DNA of 36,849 nucleotides. Origin: a virus (taxonomy: Duplodnaviria > Heunggongvirae > Uroviricota > Caudoviricetes). Positions 1,184-36,322 of this stretch are shown one piece after another. Position 1 is the stretch's first letter; every line of letters starts with the position of its first letter. Location: IMG/VR virus record IMGVR_UViG_2529292835_000026, positions 1 to 36,849 of that record; one strand, written 5' to 3'. The notes under the pieces were generated by a model that saw only the letters and a program-made list of their open reading frames with translations, made no database searches and was not told where the DNA came from. The translations under genes and the position numbers were made by a program.

Positions 1184-1666
1184 ATGGAAGAACTTCACTT
1201 TGTTTACATCAATGCAAATGGTCGTATCGGTGTTCACTCTATACAGGGCATCAGTTATAGCGAAAATCATATACAGGGCATTTGTAAGAACACCGATCGA
1301 ATAAAAACCTTCCGAAAAGACCGCATTCTTAAACAGTACGATTCACCAGAACAAGCCATTCAGGAATGCGCGTCATTCCTCCCCGAAAACTACTCACATC
1401 TCACTAAGCAGTCTGGTCCGAAAAAAAATACATTCGATGTGTGTTTCACCGGATTTAAGAAAGCAGATAAAGAAAGATTGGTTGATAAGGCGAATGAACA
1501 AGGATTAACGGTAAGAACCTCTGTAACCCAAAGCCTTCAGATGCTCTGTTGCGGTTACAATGCAGGCCCATCAAAAGTATCGGCAGCCAGGATGAAAGGC
1601 ACAATCATCATAGATGAGCCTGGCTTTATACATTTTCTTGAAACGGGTGAGATCCCAGATGAATAA
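1184..1666 (+). CDS. Small WYL-domain + BRCT-domain protein (160 aa), prophage accessory gene
   Basis: AAGAGG Shine-Dalgarno 8 nt upstream. N-terminus ends with the WYL-domain signature IKTFRKDRI; C-terminus (VCFTGF...GPSKVSAARMKGTIIIDEPGFIHFLE) has BRCT-like pattern resembling the LigA BRCT domain. Confidence 0.6.
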   Translation: MEELHFVYINANGRIGVHSIQGISYSENHIQGICKNTDRIKTFRKDRILKQYDSPEQAIQECASFLPENYSHLTKQSGPKKNTFDVCFTGFKKADKERLVDKANEQGLTVRTSVTQSLQMLCCGYNAGPSKVSAARMKGTIIIDEPGFIHFLETGEIPDE

Positions 1667-1694: not shown

Positions 1695-1911
1695 AAAAAT
1701 TCATATGCCCCTGACCACCTGGCAATGGATGTGGAGGAGCAGTAGCAATCAGTGCGGGTGTCACAATAAACCGGACCACTGTTTCATGGGTAACAAAAGT
1801 GCTCCCGCAGTTAATATTTTGGCACTGGCAGTAACGCTCTTTGGTGCTTTCAGTTACTTGAAAACTGCTCCTTGTGTGTGCCGCATGACCACACTTTGGA
1901 CAATTCATCAT
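1693..1911 (-). CDS. ogr: Ogr/Delta zinc-finger late transcription activator
   Basis: MNCPKCGHAAH...KERYCQCQNINCGSTF...PHPLPGGQ matches the P2 Ogr C4 zinc-finger layout; start placed at the internal Met pair, not the longer ORF start. Confidence 0.85.
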   Translation of the reverse strand: MMNCPKCGHAAHTRSSFQVTESTKERYCQCQNINCGSTFVTHETVVRFIVTPALIATAPPHPLPGGQGHMNF

Positions 1912-1979
1912 ATCCAGATCCCTACCTTTGCTATCAGAATCATTGTAATGATACACAAAATACCAATATTGAGAACCTT

Positions 1980-3080
1980 TTATTCCATTTCAAGATCATC
2001 AATCTTCACTTCGAGTTCAATACTGGTTGTAAAACCGTTATCCGGGCTGACGGTATGTGTCAGAGTCGTAATGGTCCATTCCGCATCATCTATCGGCTGT
2101 TTAAAACCACTGACTTTCACTGGCATTTCCGTGTAGAGATCTGCCCGACCTTCCGCCAGTTGTAGCGAGAATGACGCAACGCCGCGTTGCAGGCGTTCCC
2201 ACTGCATTTTCGCTGCCCGTTCAGCGTTGCTCCGGTTGGCATAAGTGCGATTAAGTACCAGCACGTTTTCATCCGTACCCACCAGGTAATCGCCCTGCTT
2301 CGCTTCCGGCTCTTTCTTCTGATTCTTAGTCCTGCGCTTACGCTTCACCGTTGTGCTTTCTTTCTTCGCGGGTTCGCGGGTATGCAACCAACTGGCAATT
2401 ACGCCCGTATAGGCTCCGCGATCTGCCAGGGTAAAGCGGTGACTGTCGCCGTCCTTACGTGTGATAGTGATCACCGGTAGTGGTTTACCGCTGGCACTTT
2501 TACCCTGTCCCTGCCGGATGAATAACAGATTGCCATTTTTCACCGACGCAATAGCACCGTACTGGCGCGCCAGCCGCATCAAAAAACTGCCGTCACTCTC
2601 ATTAGTCTGGTCTATATGCTCCACGGGTTTATCCGACAAGTCTTTAGCCAGTGCCATCTTCAGTTTGTGCCGCGCGGCTATTTCCTTCACCACTTCCCCG
2701 ACCGTGGTCTTGTGCCACGACTTTTCACGGCGGGTATTCAGCGTTTCCCGAAAATCAGCACTTCGCGCCCGGATAGTCAGGCGGTCCGGTGCGCCAGTGT
2801 GTTCAATCTCGTCCACCGTGAATGCCCCTTTCGGGAAAAGCGGCTGCCCCTTCCAACCCAGCGCCAGCGTAATGACCGCACCACGGCGCGGCAGCACGAT
2901 TTTTCCGTCAGCGTCGTCCAGCTCCAGATCAAGCTGGTCCGCTTCAAAGCCCCGGTTATCCGTCAGCGTAAGCCCCATCAGGCGGTTGTCCAGCACAGTA
3001 GTGATATCCCTGCCCTCAATACTGATGCTGAATGCGGGAGTTTTGTTGCCCTTATTAAGCAGTTCAGAGCTGAAATTCAC
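1980..3080 (-). CDS. D: P2 gpD-like tail protein (late control D)
   Basis: 366-aa ORF in the gpD position after U; start overlaps the U stop. Confidence 0.85.
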   Translation of the reverse strand: MNFSSELLNKGNKTPAFSISIEGRDITTVLDNRLMGLTLTDNRGFEADQLDLELDDADGKIVLPRRGAVITLALGWKGQPLFPKGAFTVDEIEHTGAPDRLTIRARSADFRETLNTRREKSWHKTTVGEVVKEIAARHKLKMALAKDLSDKPVEHIDQTNESDGSFLMRLARQYGAIASVKNGNLLFIRQGQGKSASGKPLPVITITRKDGDSHRFTLADRGAYTGVIASWLHTREPAKKESTTVKRKRRTKNQKKEPEAKQGDYLVGTDENVLVLNRTYANRSNAERAAKMQWERLQRGVASFSLQLAEGRADLYTEMPVKVSGFKQPIDDAEWTITTLTHTVSPDNGFTTSIELEVKIDDLEME

Positions 3081-22873: not shown

Positions 22874-23545
22874 TTAAAAACCAAGCTCATCTCTGATTCT
22901 TGGGAATTTTTTCATTACTCGAATATCAGTTAATAAATGCCAACGCCAAAAAACAGAAAATGGATATGATACATTACACATTGGCTTTAGCTTATTCTTG
23001 GCCTCTTGGATTTCTTGTTCTGTGCTTCGATCACTGACAAGTTTCATTCTCCAACCAGTAAAGTAAAACAATTCATCTTGTAACTTCTCTGAGAGATTTG
23101 CTCTTGTAATGCCCCTCAACCCCGTACTCGAAGAGTTAAAACACTTATCTAATAATTTGACTGTATTTAAAACCTTTCTACTTGGTCTTTTTCTTCTTGG
23201 GTATACTTGAACACCACTCGTTATAGCGTTCCCTGCGAGATGAACAATCTCACTGAAAACATCAACATCACTCTTTGTGCAATCAAGTAAGTTTTCAAAA
23301 GAATCACTTTTAATACTATTGCATCGACTGCAAGCTAAAAATAGATTGTTCCAATCATATTTGAGCTCATCAAGATCACGATGTGGAATAAAATGTTCTA
23401 TCTCTGGATCCATAAGATTACCTTGCTCACAGAGATAACATTTTCCATGAAATATTTCGTCTAAAGCATTTACAACTGTTTTATGGTTATATACTTTTCT
23501 CGACAAGCATTGAGGTGCAGGAATATTTCTAGTAACATTAAACAT
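22874..23545 (-). CDS. HNH endonuclease, Septu PtuB-like
   Basis: HGKCYLCE ... EIEHFIPH ... NNLFLACSRCNSIKS = HNH motif; overlaps the upstream ATPase gene by 8 nt; AT-rich. Confidence 0.75.
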   Translation of the reverse strand: MFNVTRNIPAPQCLSRKVYNHKTVVNALDEIFHGKCYLCEQGNLMDPEIEHFIPHRDLDELKYDWNNLFLACSRCNSIKSDSFENLLDCTKSDVDVFSEIVHLAGNAITSGVQVYPRRKRPSRKVLNTVKLLDKCFNSSSTGLRGITRANLSEKLQDELFYFTGWRMKLVSDRSTEQEIQEAKNKLKPMCNVSYPFSVFWRWHLLTDIRVMKKFPRIRDELGF

Positions 23546-24791
23546 CGTCTTCCCTTTCGCTATAATCTAAATATTTACTCTTAGCGATCATAAAAGCTGC
23601 TTTTGAACTTTTATCAAGAAAATCAATACTCTTCTGTAACGTTTTCATTATAGAATGAAATCTATCGTCGAAGACATTATTTTCTACTAAAGTCATTAAT
23701 TCTTTAACTAATGCATTTAGCTTATCCGAAGATACATCCTCACCCAACAATCCCTTTATAATTGCTGTGTAAGAATACAATGATAAATCACCCATCTGAT
23801 CCAATGTTGAGAGATTAAATATAATCGCATCAGATACTGATTGGATTACGAAAGGTGAATGCGTAGAAACAATAAATTGTATTTGCGGAAAAGATGATGA
23901 AAAAAAACTAAATACTTTCTTTTGCAATGTTACATGAAGATGAGCATCAATTTCATCAATAAGTACTATCCCTGTCATATCATGTTTTCTGATTTTATCA
24001 AGCTCTGCTTTTATCAATAAATCAGTATAAATAGAAAGAATTGATGAAAAACCAGATGACAACTTATCAAGTCCAAATGGTTCCTTATTATTTTGTAAAA
24101 GATAGATTTTCAACTTGTCGAGATCAAAATCCATTCTAATACTTTCATCTTCAAAAAGTTCTTTTAAGTCATCATTAATACTCTCAATAATATCAAAGGC
24201 TCTTTTATAGTCATCATCCTTGCCCACTCCCTTACTGACTAAAGCATAATTCCACAATGTAACTATGTATCTTTCAAAATACATACCAGCATCAATCTTA
24301 GAATTATTTCTCTGTGCGTTCCCATACTCAGTTAACAACAAATCGAGGCTGCTAATCTTACCATCATTTTTTATTTTCGCTTCTCGAATAGCAGGAAATA
24401 ATCTTATAATTGATTTTTTCTTTTTTGCAGCAACCCTGAAATCAACCACATCATTAAAAGTAATATCAAAGCTCTCAAATTCTTTTAATTTTTCTTTCAG
24501 TCTCTCAATTTCTTCGTTTAAATAGCTATAATTACCATCCCCTCTATTTGAATACTTTAAGTTTTCTTGACTGGAATTCAATTCCTTTTGTAGCTGCTCC
24601 TTAGTATAAGGATCATGTGAATTAATCGATTTTTCTATAAACTCATAAATATTCTCGATCAACCTAGTTTTACCAGAGCCATTATCTCCTGATATTATTA
24701 GATTCTTACCATCAAGATTTAATGTGTAAGGCTCATCGTTCCTTTTAAAGAAGATAGTTTCGATGAAATGTCGCATTATTCCTCCCGTCAT
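23538..24791 (-). CDS. ABC/SMC-type ATPase, Septu PtuA-like
   Basis: Walker A GDNGSGKT, ABC signature LSSGFSS, Walker B VLIDEIDAHLH, H-loop STHSP. Alternative start at 24776 (MRHF...) has a GGGAGGA Shine-Dalgarno. Confidence 0.75.
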   Translation of the reverse strand: MTGGIMRHFIETIFFKRNDEPYTLNLDGKNLIISGDNGSGKTRLIENIYEFIEKSINSHDPYTKEQLQKELNSSQENLKYSNRGDGNYSYLNEEIERLKEKLKEFESFDITFNDVVDFRVAAKKKKSIIRLFPAIREAKIKNDGKISSLDLLLTEYGNAQRNNSKIDAGMYFERYIVTLWNYALVSKGVGKDDDYKRAFDIIESINDDLKELFEDESIRMDFDLDKLKIYLLQNNKEPFGLDKLSSGFSSILSIYTDLLIKAELDKIRKHDMTGIVLIDEIDAHLHVTLQKKVFSFFSSSFPQIQFIVSTHSPFVIQSVSDAIIFNLSTLDQMGDLSLYSYTAIIKGLLGEDVSSDKLNALVKELMTLVENNVFDDRFHSIMKTLQKSIDFLDKSSKAAFMIAKSKYLDYSEREDDV

Positions 24792-24866
24792 ACTTAATAG
24801 CTTTTAGATAATATGACATTACATGTTAGATTTCATCCGTTTTGTGAACATATCCACTGCCGCGCG

Positions 24867-24885
24867 CTCGTATCCCCGCCACGCC
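24867..24885. other. Candidate cohesive-end (cos) site
   Basis: Minus strand reads GGCGTGGCGGGGATACGAG; the first 13 nt equal the start of the 186-type cos sequence as I recall it (GGCGTGGCGGGGAAAGCAT). Position between the Tum-like module and Q fits P2/186 genome order. Confidence 0.4.
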
Positions 24886-25083
24886 TGCCCGCTTTATGTA
24901 GTGGTTTTCATGCGCCTGCATGACATAAGCAAAAGCCCGCCACTCCTGGCAGGCCTCAGCAAAAACGATCCTCTAACGATCATGCGATCTCATTCGTCAT
25001 AGTCATGCACAGCCAAGGGAAGCGTAAATCCGTATCTGAATGACCGCTGAAAAGCTAATCATACGGGTTTACAAAGATGAAAG

Positions 25084-25123
25084 TCCGCTGTGAGCGAAAA
25101 GCGGATATTTCCATTGTTTTATC
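25084..25123. terminator. Hairpin with T-rich tail in the cos/divergent-promoter region
   Basis: TCCGCT-GTGAGCGAAA-AGCGGA followed by TATTTCCATTGTTTTATC. Confidence 0.3.
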
Positions 25124-25228
25124 TTGATCTAGTAAAAACAATACCCTCTTTACAAACAAAAATAATGAGTTACTATTTGCAGCACCTTTTAACCCAAAGG
25201 TTTATAATTAAAAAGGAATGGCATACCG

Positions 25229-25882
25229 ATGAATAAATACAAACTTTTCGCACAGCTATCAAGATATTCATTTGAAGCGCAGATTGATGATTTCGAAAAA
25301 TATATCCTAGGAGCAGGCGGCCAAAACAGAGTTGACTTATCGGAATTAAAAAAAGCATATGAAGATGAAAAAAAGAATGCTCCTGACGATTATATTAATT
25401 ACTTAGAAGACTATTATTCAGAGCAATATGATTTCTTAGTTAACATACAACCAAATATTTTTAATAAATCTGCTTTGGTATCTTTATACTCATGCTTAGA
25501 GCACAACCTAAACGACTATTGCAATATATGTCAAAGGATTGTAAACACCAATATATCAGTAACCGATTTTAATGGTGATGGCATCCACAAAGCAAAAAGA
25601 TATTTAACAAAATTAATGGATATAAACTTTGGCCTGTCACAAGAGTGGCGATTCATGACAGAGTTTAACAAAGTAAGGAATTGCATAGTTCATGCTAATG
25701 GAGACATTAAAAAAATGAGCACAGCTGTAGCCTTAAAAGATATCATTGATAAAACACCTACTCTTTCATTAAACAATGAAAATAATATAATAATCTCCTT
25801 AAATTATTTAAAAGATACTATCACAAAAATTAGAAAACTCTTTCAATGGTTATATACACATCTGGATCAATCATCGAAATGA
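25229..25882 (+). CDS. Uncharacterised 217-aa protein with HEPN-like R-x4-H motif (candidate defence/abortive-infection RNase)
   Basis: AAGGAA upstream of ATG; very AT-rich; motif EFNKVRNCIVHANGD fits the HEPN R-x4-6-H signature; no other recognisable domain. Confidence 0.5.
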   Translation: MNKYKLFAQLSRYSFEAQIDDFEKYILGAGGQNRVDLSELKKAYEDEKKNAPDDYINYLEDYYSEQYDFLVNIQPNIFNKSALVSLYSCLEHNLNDYCNICQRIVNTNISVTDFNGDGIHKAKRYLTKLMDINFGLSQEWRFMTEFNKVRNCIVHANGDIKKMSTAVALKDIIDKTPTLSLNNENNIIISLNYLKDTITKIRKLFQWLYTHLDQSSK

Positions 25883-25982
25883 ATACGATAACATCTCAGT
25901 TTGTTATTGGTCTATTTTTGAAAACAGCTATCGATGATATTAGTCTGTTCTTCGTCAATTAATATGCAATCCGTTCATGACA

Positions 25983-26004
25983 CAGGGCTGCTGTTACAGC
26001 CCTG
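25983..26004. other. Perfect 8-bp-stem hairpin between convergent cargo genes
   Basis: CAGGGCTG-CTGTTA-CAGCCCTG; no U-tract; sits in a short GC-normal patch between two AT-rich genes. Confidence 0.3.
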
Positions 26005-26134
26005 ACAACCTTAGACTTCAATCGATTCAGAGATCTCTAACGCATCATCACCCGTTGAACTCACAGCGATAAGTAGACGCTGGCGGCAATAACACAGAAG
26101 TGTAGCGGGAATTTGAACCACATAATTTGGTTTG

Positions 26135-27001
26135 TTAGATGGCTTTGCTTCGATATTCAATTTCTAAAATCGCCTTTGTCATTGCCGCAATAGTTATAGC
26201 TTCTACCATAGTCAATTCAGGCTTGTTCAAGCTTCCGTGTCCAGCAGTAGGTAATTTGTTACGTAAATCATAAATATCTTTAACAGCATCAATAAGATTC
26301 TTAGGTAATTTTGACATTTTTTCGAACTGTTTAAAAAAACCACCCAATGACTCATTTGCCACATTCGGGTTTTGAGTGATTTCCTTAGCCATAGTTTCTA
26401 AAACATTAGAGGCTGCGTGCAGTGCACCTGCCGGATCATTATTATCCAAGCAATTATTCATTCTATCTATTTGCTGAACGATATTTGGGTGCAATCTCTT
26501 TAAGTAATCACTAGCCAATTCTTCATTGAAATTTTTGACACTTTCAAAAACATCGCAATCTAAATAAAATTTAGGATTGACTGACATCCATGTATATTTC
26601 CAATCATTTTCTAAATTATCTTTTTCCGCAATCCGCCTGCCAGTGTCCTGATCTATCTCATCAACATATTTACACATATAATCGGCGTAGTAGTGTAAAT
26701 ATCTAAATGATATTTCTGGGCAAAAATTACTAACTGATGCAAGGCCGCCATATTCTTTTGTAGTAACTGTAGGGACTTCTTCATCACATAAAGATGAGAA
26801 AGTGGTTCTTTCCCAAAATTCGCCCAACTCTTTTTCTTTCCTAGTTGCCATACCAGCTATCATATTGATGCTTGAGAGCAAAACTACACTCTGATAGTAT
26901 CGAGGACATCTGTATGAACTAGCATATGGGCATATTGATGATGCTTTACGATTAATACGCTCTTTTTCCCACCAATTTTTATCAGGAATAATTCTTTGCA
27001 T
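26135..27001 (-). CDS. Uncharacterised 288-aa protein, candidate defence cargo
   Basis: Long AT-rich ORF convergent with the 217-aa gene; Cys-rich N-terminus (CPYASSYRCPRYY); no family recognised by eye; no clear Shine-Dalgarno at the first ATG. Confidence 0.5.
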   Translation of the reverse strand: MQRIIPDKNWWEKERINRKASSICPYASSYRCPRYYQSVVLLSSINMIAGMATRKEKELGEFWERTTFSSLCDEEVPTVTTKEYGGLASVSNFCPEISFRYLHYYADYMCKYVDEIDQDTGRRIAEKDNLENDWKYTWMSVNPKFYLDCDVFESVKNFNEELASDYLKRLHPNIVQQIDRMNNCLDNNDPAGALHAASNVLETMAKEITQNPNVANESLGGFFKQFEKMSKLPKNLIDAVKDIYDLRNKLPTAGHGSLNKPELTMVEAITIAAMTKAILEIEYRSKAI

Positions 27002-33837: not shown

Positions 33838-34470
33838 ATGTTAAACATCAGAATGGGTTCCGATACGGGAGGTAAGGCAGCTATTGAGAGGCTGCTTGAG
33901 GCTTATGGATTCACAACTAAGCAGGCATTAAGCGAGCACCTGAATGTCTCAAAAAGTACTATGGCAAACAGAGTGTTACGTGACAGTTTTCCTGCTGACT
34001 GGATAATTCAGTGTGCACTAGAAACCGGTGTTTCGTTACTTTGGTTAGCCACAGGACAGGGAAGCATGAAAGAAGGATACGAGCCTGAGAAAAGATCTCA
34101 TAACGAGAACAAACAAGCAATTAAACCGTTATCCAAACTCATAACTCCATCTATTCCTAAAGGAACCTTGGAAAATGGACAACTCAGTATTGATGAAGAG
34201 ATTTTCCTAGACCACAGCATATTACCTGCAGATTATGAAGAATCGATGTTCTTAGAAACCCCTACTGATTGTTATCTCATCGATAAATCAGTTAAACAAG
34301 TCAGCAATGGATTCTGGCTTATCAATATTGATGGAATGATTATTATTGCAAAAATCATGCGGATTCCCGGCAATAAGATTGTAGTAAATCAAGATGAAGC
34401 ATCTTTCGAGTGCTCTGCTGATGATGTGGAAGTTATTGGGCGTGCAGTCAAAGTAATAAAGAGTATCTAA
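33838..34470 (+). CDS. Immunity repressor (186 CI-like)
   Basis: N-terminal helix-turn-helix (TTKQALSEHLNVSKSTMANRV); located immediately upstream of int and divergent from the early operon. Confidence 0.8.
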   Translation: MLNIRMGSDTGGKAAIERLLEAYGFTTKQALSEHLNVSKSTMANRVLRDSFPADWIIQCALETGVSLLWLATGQGSMKEGYEPEKRSHNENKQAIKPLSKLITPSIPKGTLENGQLSIDEEIFLDHSILPADYEESMFLETPTDCYLIDKSVKQVSNGFWLINIDGMIIIAKIMRIPGNKIVVNQDEASFECSADDVEVIGRAVKVIKSI

Positions 34471-34472
34471 AC

Positions 34473-35489
34473 ATGACTGTCAGAAAACAGCCAAACGGTA
34501 AATGGTTGTGCGAGTGCTATCCCAATGGACGCAATGGCAAGCGCGTGCGTAAGCAATTTGCTACGAAAGGCGAAGCCATTGCTTTTGAAAGCTTCACAAT
34601 GGAAGAAGTGAACAAAAAACCATGGCTGGGGGAAAAGGAAGATCGGCGACACCTATCAGAATTAATTGAGCAGTGGTATTCCCTGTATGGTCAAACACTC
34701 GCAGACCCCAAGCGCCTCATGGCGAAACTTAGAATTATCTGTAATGGTCTAGGCGATCCCATCGCTTCAGAACTGACAGCCGGTGACTTTACGAAATACC
34801 GCGAAGCACGGTTAAAAGGGGAAGTACGAAATGAAGATGGCACGTTTATGTCGCCCGTTAAGCCCCGCACGGTAAACCTTGAACAGCGCAATCTATCATC
34901 TGTTTTTGGTACACTGAAAAAGTTGGGCCACTGGTCAGCCTCCAACCCGCTTGCTGGGCTGCCAACATTTAAAATTGCTGAGAGTGAATTGGCGTTCCTG
35001 ACCCCGGAAGAAATTAAACGTCTGCTGGATGCCTGCGCCGATTCTCAAAGCTCCAGCCTGCTTTTGATTGCAAAAATATGCCTGGCCACCGGCGCACGCT
35101 GGAGCGAAGCCGAAAACCTGCAGAGTCATCAGGTATCAAAATACCGTATCACTTATACCAAGACCAAAGGCAAGAAAAACCGAACTGTGCCTATTTCTAA
35201 GGATTTATATGAAGAACTGCCTAAGAATAGGGGGAAGTTATTCACCCCATGCAGAAAAGCCTTTGAGCGTGCAGTAAAGCGGGCTGGTATCGATCTGCCA
35301 GAGGGTCAATGTACTCACGTTCTGCGTCATACATTCGCTAGCCATTTTATGATGAATGGTGGAAACATATTGGTTTTGCGGGATATCCTAGGACATTCAG
35401 ATATAAAAATGACCATGGTCTATGCACACTTCGCCCCAGACCATTTAGAAGATGCCGTAACTAAAAATCCTTTATTTAATTTGAGGTAA
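34473..35489 (+). CDS. int: Tyrosine integrase (P2 Int-like)
   Basis: C-terminal catalytic motifs ...HVLRHTFASHFMMNGG...LGHSDIKMTMVYAHF (R...HxxR...Y). Confidence 0.9.
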   Translation: MTVRKQPNGKWLCECYPNGRNGKRVRKQFATKGEAIAFESFTMEEVNKKPWLGEKEDRRHLSELIEQWYSLYGQTLADPKRLMAKLRIICNGLGDPIASELTAGDFTKYREARLKGEVRNEDGTFMSPVKPRTVNLEQRNLSSVFGTLKKLGHWSASNPLAGLPTFKIAESELAFLTPEEIKRLLDACADSQSSSLLLIAKICLATGARWSEAENLQSHQVSKYRITYTKTKGKKNRTVPISKDLYEELPKNRGKLFTPCRKAFERAVKRAGIDLPEGQCTHVLRHTFASHFMMNGGNILVLRDILGHSDIKMTMVYAHFAPDHLEDAVTKNPLFNLR

Positions 35490-35499
35490 GTAGTAATTT

Positions 35500-36168
35500 A
35501 TGAATAGCGAACTAGAGTTACTTATAAAAATATTATTCCCTTCCCTATCTGCCATTATATCCTTATTAGGGCTTAAAACAGGGTGGACTTATAAAAAAGA
35601 CAAACTATTCACATCACGTAAAAACATTAGCGAATTTTCATATCAGATGTATAAAAGCAGTGAAGATCCGACCTTCAAAAAACTGGCGGAAGATTACGGC
35701 ATTGCTGCATTAACCAAAGATAACACATTGACAAAAAAACAAAGATTAATATTACTCAACACAACAAACCCCGTTAGCGATATAGATAATTATTCCAAAT
35801 GTCAAAGTCTAATTTCCATTACCACCCATAAAGAAATATTCGCATGGAATAAAAAAAGATATAAATACAGCATATATAGAAAATTAATAAAAATCATAAC
35901 AACTCTAATTTACTTCATGAGCAGTCTCATCGTAGCACTTCCTTTCAGTTATTCTGTTGTAGTAAGTGCTAAGATGATGGAGAAGATAAACCATCTAACT
36001 ACTTGGCAATACTTTGGTTTAAGCAGCTATTTTGTGGTATCGGGAGTAGCAATATGCTTTATCTGCCTAGATAAGCTCTCCAAGATTAAGATCGCCGAGA
36101 GATTAATCGTTTCGAATAGGCGTTTAGGCGACAAATGCAGTGGCGGCACTTTGGCGGCAGAAAGTTAA
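35500..36168 (+). CDS. Membrane protein (222 aa), cargo between int and attR
   Basis: Very AT-rich; GAGGT upstream; three hydrophobic helices (N-terminal and two C-terminal); no family recognised. Confidence 0.6.
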   Translation: MNSELELLIKILFPSLSAIISLLGLKTGWTYKKDKLFTSRKNISEFSYQMYKSSEDPTFKKLAEDYGIAALTKDNTLTKKQRLILLNTTNPVSDIDNYSKCQSLISITTHKEIFAWNKKRYKYSIYRKLIKIITTLIYFMSSLIVALPFSYSVVVSAKMMEKINHLTTWQYFGLSSYFVVSGVAICFICLDKLSKIKIAERLIVSNRRLGDKCSGGTLAAES

Positions 36169-36243: not shown

Positions 36244-36288
36244 TTGAAATGCTATGTAGGAATTTCGGACGCGGGTTCAACTCCCGCC
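36244..36288. repeat. attR core: 45-bp direct repeat, displaced ssrA 3' end
   Basis: Identical to 1016-1060. Confidence 0.9.
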
Positions 36289-36322
36289 AGCTCCACCACT
36301 TTTTAGTTGTTTGAAGTTCAAT

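Follow-up and report, generated by a model that had tools for sequence, protein, structure and literature searches.

To our knowledge, the WYL domains that sense single-stranded DNA (ssDNA) and switch on defence or DNA-damage responses are always found within transcription factors. Among these regulators, the WYL domains of CapW and DriD bind ssDNA, and in CapW the contacts to the strand are made by S144, R164, R168 and R184 (PMC11662680). A second point of comparison is provided by the BRCT domain of Rfc1, which in isolation prefers a 5'-phosphorylated end with a 3' single-strand overhang (PMC9293009). The combination of the two domains is named in a list of WYL fusions compiled by Makarova et al. 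2014 (PMC4012209), a listing in which it stands without genomic context, phage link, membrane fusions or function; our literature search returned no functional study of WYL-BRCT proteins, of their phage context or of their membrane-fused forms. Here, we describe a gene for such a protein in the window, that is, the whole 36,849-nt stretch of DNA under analysis (IMG/VR virus record IMGVR_UViG_2529292835_000026), to which all coordinates refer, and follow up the claims of an initial annotation made from its sequence. The gene occupies positions 1184-1666 (+ strand), starts with ATG and encodes a protein of 160 aa.

The AlphaFold (AF2) model of the full protein, built on its alignment, has a mean predicted local distance difference test score (pLDDT) of 91.9 and displays the compact two-domain organization that the initial annotation had anticipated, with a WYL barrel joined to a BRCT domain by a short helical linker. 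The chain opens with β-strand 1 of the barrel at residue 3; a helix-turn-helix (HTH) match in Pfam, a WCX domain and a catalytic domain are all absent from the window protein. We hold with high confidence that the gene is an accessory member of the lysogeny module of a 186/P2-family prophage and that its product consists only of a WYL-type Sm barrel, a linker and a LigA/RFC1-class BRCT domain with an intact phosphate pocket, with neither an HTH nor a catalytic domain. By analogy with described systems, we also propose, tentatively and with somewhat less than even confidence, that WYL-BRCT may be a sensor or binder of ssDNA/5'-phosphate junctions that is expressed in the lysogen and takes part in Rex-like exclusion.

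The N-terminal domain (residues 3-52; 1190-1339, + strand) adopts the five-stranded Sm/SH3-like β-barrel fold characteristic of WYL domains (PF13280). Residues 1-66, modelled separately with AlphaFold, reached a pLDDT of 91.8, and a comparison of this model alone with the PDB placed WYL domains at seven of the top 11 matches, ahead of Hfq/Lsm proteins, with scores of 6.8 for PafBC, 6.5 for the CapW-ssDNA complex, 6.2 and 6.1 for BrxR, 5.8, 5.8 and 5.7 for DriD and 5.8 for CapW. The IKTFRKDRI segment (residues 40-48; 1301-1327, +), which had been read as a WYL signature, carries the FRxDRI hallmark of WYL and aligns to VRNFRLDRV of PafBC. Conservation was assessed in an alignment of 59 close relatives (A1), with 58 long relatives analysed separately: T42 is invariant, and F43, R44 and D46 are kept in at least 90% of the relatives. 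The W-Y-L residues on strand 3 are replaced by N-H-I (family consensus E-[HY]-[IL]) in the alignment to WYFEAYC...FRLDRV of PafBC, whose WYL motif was also the sole PDB sequence match of the N-domain profile (E=1), with WYFEAYCHSKAGVRNFRLDRV aligned against EYIQGIC...LKTFRKDRI. R44/R47 are candidates for the last of the CapW-type contacts. A profile check against Pfam succeeds for the family and fails for the window protein: the WYL model matches 16 of the 59 close relatives (best E 1.5e-5) and 23 of the 58 long ones (best E 1.2e-8), whereas the window protein gives no match even at E<=10 and stays below the curated threshold. A PF13280 match is precomputed for one homologue, and the PADLOC CRISPR-associated WYL models as well as the DRT 'RTasWYL' model match the N-terminal domain of relatives. 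The fold, the motif and the family-level Pfam matches together uphold the assignment of an N-terminal WYL domain.

The C-terminal BRCT domain (residues 84-157; 1433-1654, +) belongs to the LigA/RFC1 class and shows the β-α-β-β-α-β-α fold expected of BRCT domains. Its sequence signal is weak but present, with a Pfam BRCT (PF00533) match of the window protein at E=1.2e-3 and 19.5 bits, under the cut-off of 21.3, whereas 50 of the 59 close relatives match at E<=1 (best 2.1e-6), as do 47 of the 58 longer ones; the BRCT call of the initial annotation is thus right at the level of fold. The top PDB sequence matches of the family profile are the BRCT domains of LigA and Rfc1 (RFC1), at 6e-5, and a structural search of BFVD returned only LigA BRCT domains and unnamed family members. 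The phosphate pocket typical of the domain, formed by an S/T-G pair after strand 1 and a lysine on helix 2, is present as T89-G90 (codons at 1448-1453, +) and K131 (codon at 1574-1576, +). In hidden Markov model alignments these residues coincide with the TG and K of Thermus filiformis LigA and yeast Rfc1, K131 falling on GSK of LigA and GPKK of Rfc1. T89, G90, F91, L99 and K131 are invariant among the 59 relatives, and K96 is kept in at least 90%. For human RFC1, Kobayashi et al. in 2010 reportedly pointed to residues T415/G416/R423/K458. At its end, the domain also carries a motif, ETGE(I/L/V)P(D/E) (window residues 152-158), that is almost invariant across the family, with T154 and G155 kept in at least 90%, and that is retained even where further domains follow.

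Public databases label the family differently. PHROG 2561, which the window protein matches end to end (1e-76), is named 'DNA ligase', RefSeq phage records read 'DNA ligase' or 'putative exonuclease' (the latter, a DEDDh label, on the record of phage Cartapus), and JGI gives 'NAD-dependent DNA ligase'. These labels, together with a BRCT domain closest in sequence to that of LigA, would suit a ligase, a ligase subunit, an exonuclease, or a decoy that titrates host LigA away from nicks. The model matches, however, cover only the last ~80-100 positions of the LigA and DEDDh-exonuclease models, at 13-26 bits and far below the cut-offs: NCBIfam LigA models are matched only at positions ~550-664 (the BRCT domain) with 11-20 bits against cut-offs of 369-1051, and PRK06063 (DEDDh exonuclease) only at 229-307 of 331 (its BRCT tail) with 26 bits against 389. 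LigA identity was rejected on the lack of adenylation, OB, Zn-finger and HhH domains in a 160-aa protein whose non-BRCT part is a WYL barrel, and DEDDh identity on the lack of a DEDDh domain. Nothing specific supports the decoy, and E. coli LigA itself is a weak match (E 0.12-0.13). We regard this whole group of explanations as highly improbable; with no HTH and no enzymatic domain in the protein, the ligase and exonuclease labels are wrong, and the widespread annotations of the family should read WYL-BRCT domain protein.

The gene is real and under purifying selection. A Shine-Dalgarno sequence (AGAGG, 1173-1177, +), read from the sequence, lies 6 nt before the ATG, and an AGAGGT...TCACATGGAAGA block is conserved among relatives, so that the ORF previously noted between the ssrA attachment core and ogr is indeed there, with a good ribosome-binding site. 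Its absence or disruption in close relatives would have spoken against a function, and the gene is intact in 50 of 51 close IMG/VR copies. The ratio of non-synonymous to synonymous polymorphism (pN/pS) is 0.15 among 23 distinct alleles and 0.23 in the comparison with the Klebsiella orthologue, where pS (0.85) is near saturation. Homologues form 122 clusters at E<=1e-3, the closest of which is 98% identical and holds 424 member sequences; an exhaustive profile search returned 209 representative clusters below 1e-30 and 889 below 1e-10. The full gene is found in 171 of 5426 complete E. coli genomes, and 28 of 50,697 phage records match the protein. On the phage side, P2-like phages of Yersinia, Vibrio, Burkholderia and Mannheimia and one Pseudomonas phage carry homologues; genomic homologues are found in many Gammaproteobacteria as well as some Alphaproteobacteria, Desulfuromonadales, Myxococcales and Verrucomicrobiota.

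The prophage that carries the gene can be delimited precisely. The window opens with smpB (1-483), followed by the transfer-messenger RNA gene ssrA (698-1060), and WYL-BRCT starts 124 nt past the end of the latter. The final 31 nt of ssrA (1030-1060, +, the left prophage junction) are repeated exactly at 36268-36298 (+, the right junction), where no such repeat is expected by chance (0 expected); the two copies are therefore the att cores of a prophage of ~35 kb integrated in ssrA. The prophage is of the 186/P2 family, with a 186-type CI (33838-34470), Int (34473-35489), CII and Apl at its right end and Ogr (1693-1956, − strand), then gpD, at its left. The G+C content of the WYL-BRCT gene (41.6%) resembles that of cI (39.8%) and int (46.4%) and lies below the prophage mean (49.5%) and gpD (53.7%). 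As the initial annotation stated, P2 has no gene between ogr and attP, an interval that contains only a terminator, an Int arm site, an IHF site and the core.

Adjacency to att is a derived state; most relatives have the gene between those for the repressor and for Int. In distant relatives it is not found beside att; it sits directly downstream of a prophage repressor on the same strand. The order is CI - gene in Yersinia ruckeri (8-nt gap), in Mannheimia PHL101 (3-nt gap) and in several IMG/VR phages, repressor - gene in Vibrio PV94, CI - gene - int in Xenorhabdus and a metagenomic phage, and CI - gene - two ORFs - int in Pectobacterium; a lambdoid locus reads Cro <- -> CI(S24) - gene, the gene there being fused to transmembrane (TM) helices. 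The same position is seen in Rahnella and Acerihabitans, and the gap to the repressor gene is often only 3-26 nt. Across 34 loci with an upstream ORF on the same strand within 400 nt, that ORF encodes a repressor-type HTH protein (186-type CI, XRE/HTH_3 or S24 CI) in 18, and in four more it encodes a Flk-like membrane protein, which in turn comes after a repressor. The window's order, cI - int - (cargo) - attP - gene, is shared by Yersinia phage MLG42 and Escherichia phage Cartapus. Two further settings are of a defence type: in one relative the gene comes after that of a protein matching Pfam AbiGi, a locus that we take by sequence to be the Pseudomaricurvus one (L139), and another relative resides in a mobile island beside Mrr and a DNA methylase, i.e. 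in a non-prophage context. Pfam searches with neighbour genes of relatives (471-aa, 428-aa and 279-aa neighbours and Cartapus gp33) mostly gave no match.

Such close linkage to repressor genes might indicate a sensor of DNA damage or induction, in which the WYL domain would sense ssDNA and the protein would modulate the repressor or excision as an antirepressor or co-factor. WYL regulators such as DriD, PafBC and CapW sense ssDNA after DNA damage (PMC11662680), and the 186-type CI of the window prophage has no S24 self-cleavage domain. The protein, however, has no HTH or other output domain, and the gene accompanies four unrelated repressor types, one of which, an S24 CI, cleaves itself and has no need of a separate sensor. 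Frequent fusions to TM helices, the occurrence outside prophage immunity regions in the Mrr-methylase island and the complete separation of the gene from cI in the window lineage argue in the same direction, and we consider this role distinctly unlikely.

Many relatives are predicted to be physically tied to the membrane. Of the 150 best representative clusters, 58 exceed the two-domain core in length, and TM helices are predicted (Kyte-Doolittle, 19-residue window, threshold 1.6) in 38 of these 58 long relatives, at the N-terminus in 35 and at the C-terminus in three. The N-terminal extensions comprise one to five helices and then a low-complexity linker; the WYL-BRCT module is assigned to the cytoplasm on account of the basic residues that come after the final helix. 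In other fusions the additions are one or two further modules, or soluble domains of unknown fold (phrog_36782 type). Elsewhere the membrane component is a neighbour: Flk-like proteins (phrog_5825/6521) lie between the repressor and the gene in Serratia, Burkholderia and two other loci and belong to a family of 210-270 aa with an N-terminal Flk_N/Ant-like region and a C-terminal TM anchor (L015 3317-3955; L003 3215-3964; L020 5169-5975; L110 4288-4962).

In the window prophage, the corresponding candidate is orf222 (35500-36168, +; phrog_21256), which encodes a predicted 3-TM membrane protein of 222 aa and is the last gene of the cI-int operon. It has a G+C content of 34.5%, no Pfam match and no match in the phage record collection. 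Its homologues (34-37% identity) lie directly downstream of WYL-BRCT genes in two IMG/VR phages, Rahnella and Acerihabitans, and all three E. coli orf222 prophages checked carry the WYL-BRCT gene. As orf222 is the last gene before attR, it is the neighbour of WYL-BRCT across attP in the circular phage. The putative sensor and its membrane neighbour straddle attP, and integration puts them at opposite prophage ends, each behind its own upstream transcription unit.

Genes co-transcribed with prophage repressors typically encode exclusion functions, such as lambda rexAB and the conversion genes of P2. The evidence is in keeping with the earlier guess of a sensor or regulator of DNA damage, superinfection or anti-defence, and the context favours superinfection or exclusion. 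In Rex-like exclusion, the WYL barrel of WYL-BRCT would hold ssDNA, by analogy with CapW and DriD, and its BRCT pocket, on the model of the isolated Rfc1 BRCT domain, would take up the 5'-phosphate found at nicks, gaps or recessed ends. Junctions of this kind would mark incoming or replicating phage DNA, being present at annealed unligated cos ends, in rolling-circle or gapped intermediates and at resected ends. Binding could then either block the processing of the junction directly or be relayed to a membrane protein, which would abort the infection much as lambda RexA/RexB do. That membrane part would be fused in many relatives and encoded by a neighbour gene in others, with orf222 across attP as the candidate here. 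In most relatives the gene is probably co-transcribed with the repressor; in the window lineage it would have moved to the far side of attP, behind the ssrA-type terminator. A broader claim, that WYL-BRCT is the DNA-sensing part of a widespread, unrecognised class of repressor-operon exclusion or abortive-infection systems with interchangeable membrane effectors (TM helices, Flk-like or orf222-like proteins), is more speculative, and we rate it as somewhat unlikely.

The same predicted ligands, ssDNA and a 5'-phosphate end, are also compatible with a factor acting on the phage's own DNA, which would bind its nicks, gaps and ends and protect them from host nucleases or defence, or aid circularisation and the establishment of lysogeny. 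P2-family genomes enter the cell as linear DNA with cohesive 5'-phosphorylated ends, and the gene is linked to int and attP. Placement in repressor operons, however, implies constitutive expression in the lysogen and not early in infection, and variants anchored by TM helices, like a location that varies as cargo does, are more easily reconciled with a conversion gene than with a core function. The gene is missing from P2, 186 and many relatives, as the small share of matching phage records illustrates (28 of 50,697). A role on the phage's own DNA is, in our judgement, unlikely.

Several observations weigh against the proposed exclusion role of WYL-BRCT and its membrane partners. Of the four residues with which CapW contacts ssDNA, two, the arginines on either side of the WYL motif, lack conserved counterparts, the motif reading E-N-H-I-Q, and their absence means that the ligand may differ. 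The window protein lacks both an effector domain and a TM segment, and its gene lies outside the repressor operon with no detectable promoter; nor is the protein a defence gene or model in PADLOC v2. orf222 was found in 29 E. coli genomes compared with 171 for WYL-BRCT, and it is absent from MLG42 and Cartapus, the int-attP slot of the latter being taken by a different 401-aa ORF and that of MLG42 containing none. On these grounds orf222 was rejected as an obligate partner, and the partners would be facultative and interchangeable; it is kept as a candidate facultative partner because every orf222-family lineage found adjoins a WYL-BRCT gene. Membrane proteins are, moreover, common in prophage cargo, so that adjacency alone is weak evidence.

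The region between ssrA and the gene bears on how the gene is expressed. A strong phage-supplied intrinsic terminator (1069-1096, +), with a 12-bp stem, a 4-nt loop and a T-run, replaces that of ssrA and restores ssrA termination after integration. It is conserved in all relatives aligned (Klebsiella, Yersinia and the alternative-cargo prophages), stands between every upstream promoter and the WYL-BRCT gene, and in the circular phage also parts the gene from the cI-int-orf222 operon. A search from this terminator to the ATG for a sigma-70-like promoter found none at 9/12 and none at 8/12 (E. coli and Klebsiella versions), and a look by eye found no Ogr-type TGT-N12-ACA late-promoter element. 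Transcription by read-through from the highly expressed ssrA or from an atypical promoter is possible. Downstream, a bidirectional hairpin terminator (1670-1683), detected on both strands, is common to WYL-BRCT (+) and ogr (−).

Past the ssrA-type terminator, two tandem putative integrase arm-type sites, TGGCGGCA / TGGCGACA (1109-1127, +), start at 1109 and 1120, 11 nt apart, and a third, inverted copy of TGGCGACA lies at 1149-1156 (−). A tandem TGGCGGCA pair with identical spacing is found in the other att arm (36141-36159, +; starts at 36141 and 36152). TGGCGRCA octamers number 13 in the window against 3.6 expected, five of them within ~130 nt of the att cores, and are probably integrase arm-type sites; the 1109-1127 block is conserved in all aligned relatives, and an Int arm site is annotated at the equivalent place in P2.

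These sites account for an inverted repeat that the initial annotation had placed at 1119-1157 in the promoter region of the gene. The repeat exists and is slightly longer (1115-1161), with arms at 1115-1127 and 1149-1161 that are complementary at 12 of 13 positions and lie 21 nt apart, but it does not point to a promoter: the left arm is arm-type site 2 and the right arm is site 3. The left arm is kept even in a prophage with different cargo, whereas the right arm is not conserved at the orthologous loci of Klebsiella or Yersinia. Because such arm-type sites also occur at the other core, we read the repeat as belonging to the recombination site and not as an operator, and its candidacy as an operator or promoter was rejected. 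A WYL transcription factor akin to CapW, BrxR, PafBC and DriD, controlling ogr or other neighbours through this repeat, for which the WYL fold and the repeat just upstream might speak, is accordingly hard to credit: the protein has neither a winged HTH (wHTH) nor a WCX domain, its chain starting with the first barrel strand, and the repeat is shared with the other att arm and unconserved on its right side. Of all the explanations weighed, this is the one to which we attach the least probability.

The interval between att and ogr is a cargo slot, since another E. coli ssrA prophage has an unrelated 237-aa membrane protein there (L007 3674-4387, E. coli 23-AB02114), for which one TM segment is predicted and neither Pfam nor PHROG gave a match. 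The int-attP slot is a second variable cargo position, occupied by orf222 here and by the 401-aa ORF in Cartapus; the latter product, gp33 (L118 2008-3213), is annotated as 'putative RES protein, NAD+ binding domain' and has no Pfam match at E<=0.01. An island at 23538-27001, with a G+C content of 30-35%, separates the structural genes from the replication gene and looks like a P2-like cargo/defence hotspot (old/tin position). It contains a gene for an AAA_21/AAA_15 (AbiEii/OLD-type) ATPase of 416 aa (23538-24791, −; phrog_9802) and two ORFs without matches (25229-25882, +, and 26135-27001, −). A long ORF at 1705-2136 (+) runs antisense to ogr; its counterpart in Yersinia phage MLG42 is an 84-aa hypothetical protein (L001 4523-4777), which, with ogr unannotated there, is probably a mis-annotation of the ogr locus. 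In one IMG/VR contig (L068 1220-5369), the WYL-BRCT position is preceded, ~1.4 kb upstream, by a gene for a P4-type primase-helicase (Zn-ribbon, Toprim, D5), which may represent a satellite integrated in tandem at the same site; the WYL-BRCT ORF is called short there (125 aa) although the tblastn match spans residues 1-160.

Compared with known systems, the C-terminal domain has its closest sequence relatives in the BRCT domains of LigA and Rfc1/RFC p140, with which it shares the TG...K pocket; in the window protein, the domain follows a WYL domain in a 160-aa phage protein, with no ligase or clamp loader. The PADLOC candidate PDC-S48 ends in a BRCT domain of the same type, and relatives match it at positions 322-406 with E values down to 1.9e-13; its first ~320 positions are unmatched and contain no WYL domain, so that it is a different protein. 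Membership in PDC-S48 was likewise rejected for the window protein, which matches only 335-406 of 411; its relatives, too, fall short of a full-length match. The likeness to lambda RexA/RexB lies in the position of relatives directly downstream of the repressor on the same strand and in the pairing, in relatives, of a putative cytoplasmic nucleic-acid binder with a fused or adjacent membrane component; it would be a functional analogy only, with no kinship in sequence or fold. Both folds belong to known families, and a WYL sensor outside a transcription factor, serving as a prophage conversion gene, would not be categorically new. The family is large and its context signal consistent, and if the proposed role is true, WYL-BRCT would constitute a new type of lysogenic-conversion (exclusion) gene across Proteobacteria, with its membrane-fused relatives as single-chain sensor-effector systems. 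The WYL barrel fold is shared with the wHTH-WYL-WCX regulators CapW, BrxR, PafBC and DriD, from which the window protein differs in that it lacks an HTH, a WCX dimerisation domain and the W of the WYL motif and carries a BRCT domain in place of DNA-operator binding; from CapW it differs also in lacking the two motif-flanking arginines. Whereas those regulators act through DNA operators, the WYL fold is here joined to a predicted 5'-phosphate-binding BRCT domain beside temperate-phage repressors, and if it does recognise ssDNA/5'-phosphate junctions, the protein would be a minimal and tractable reader of 'foreign or damaged DNA'.

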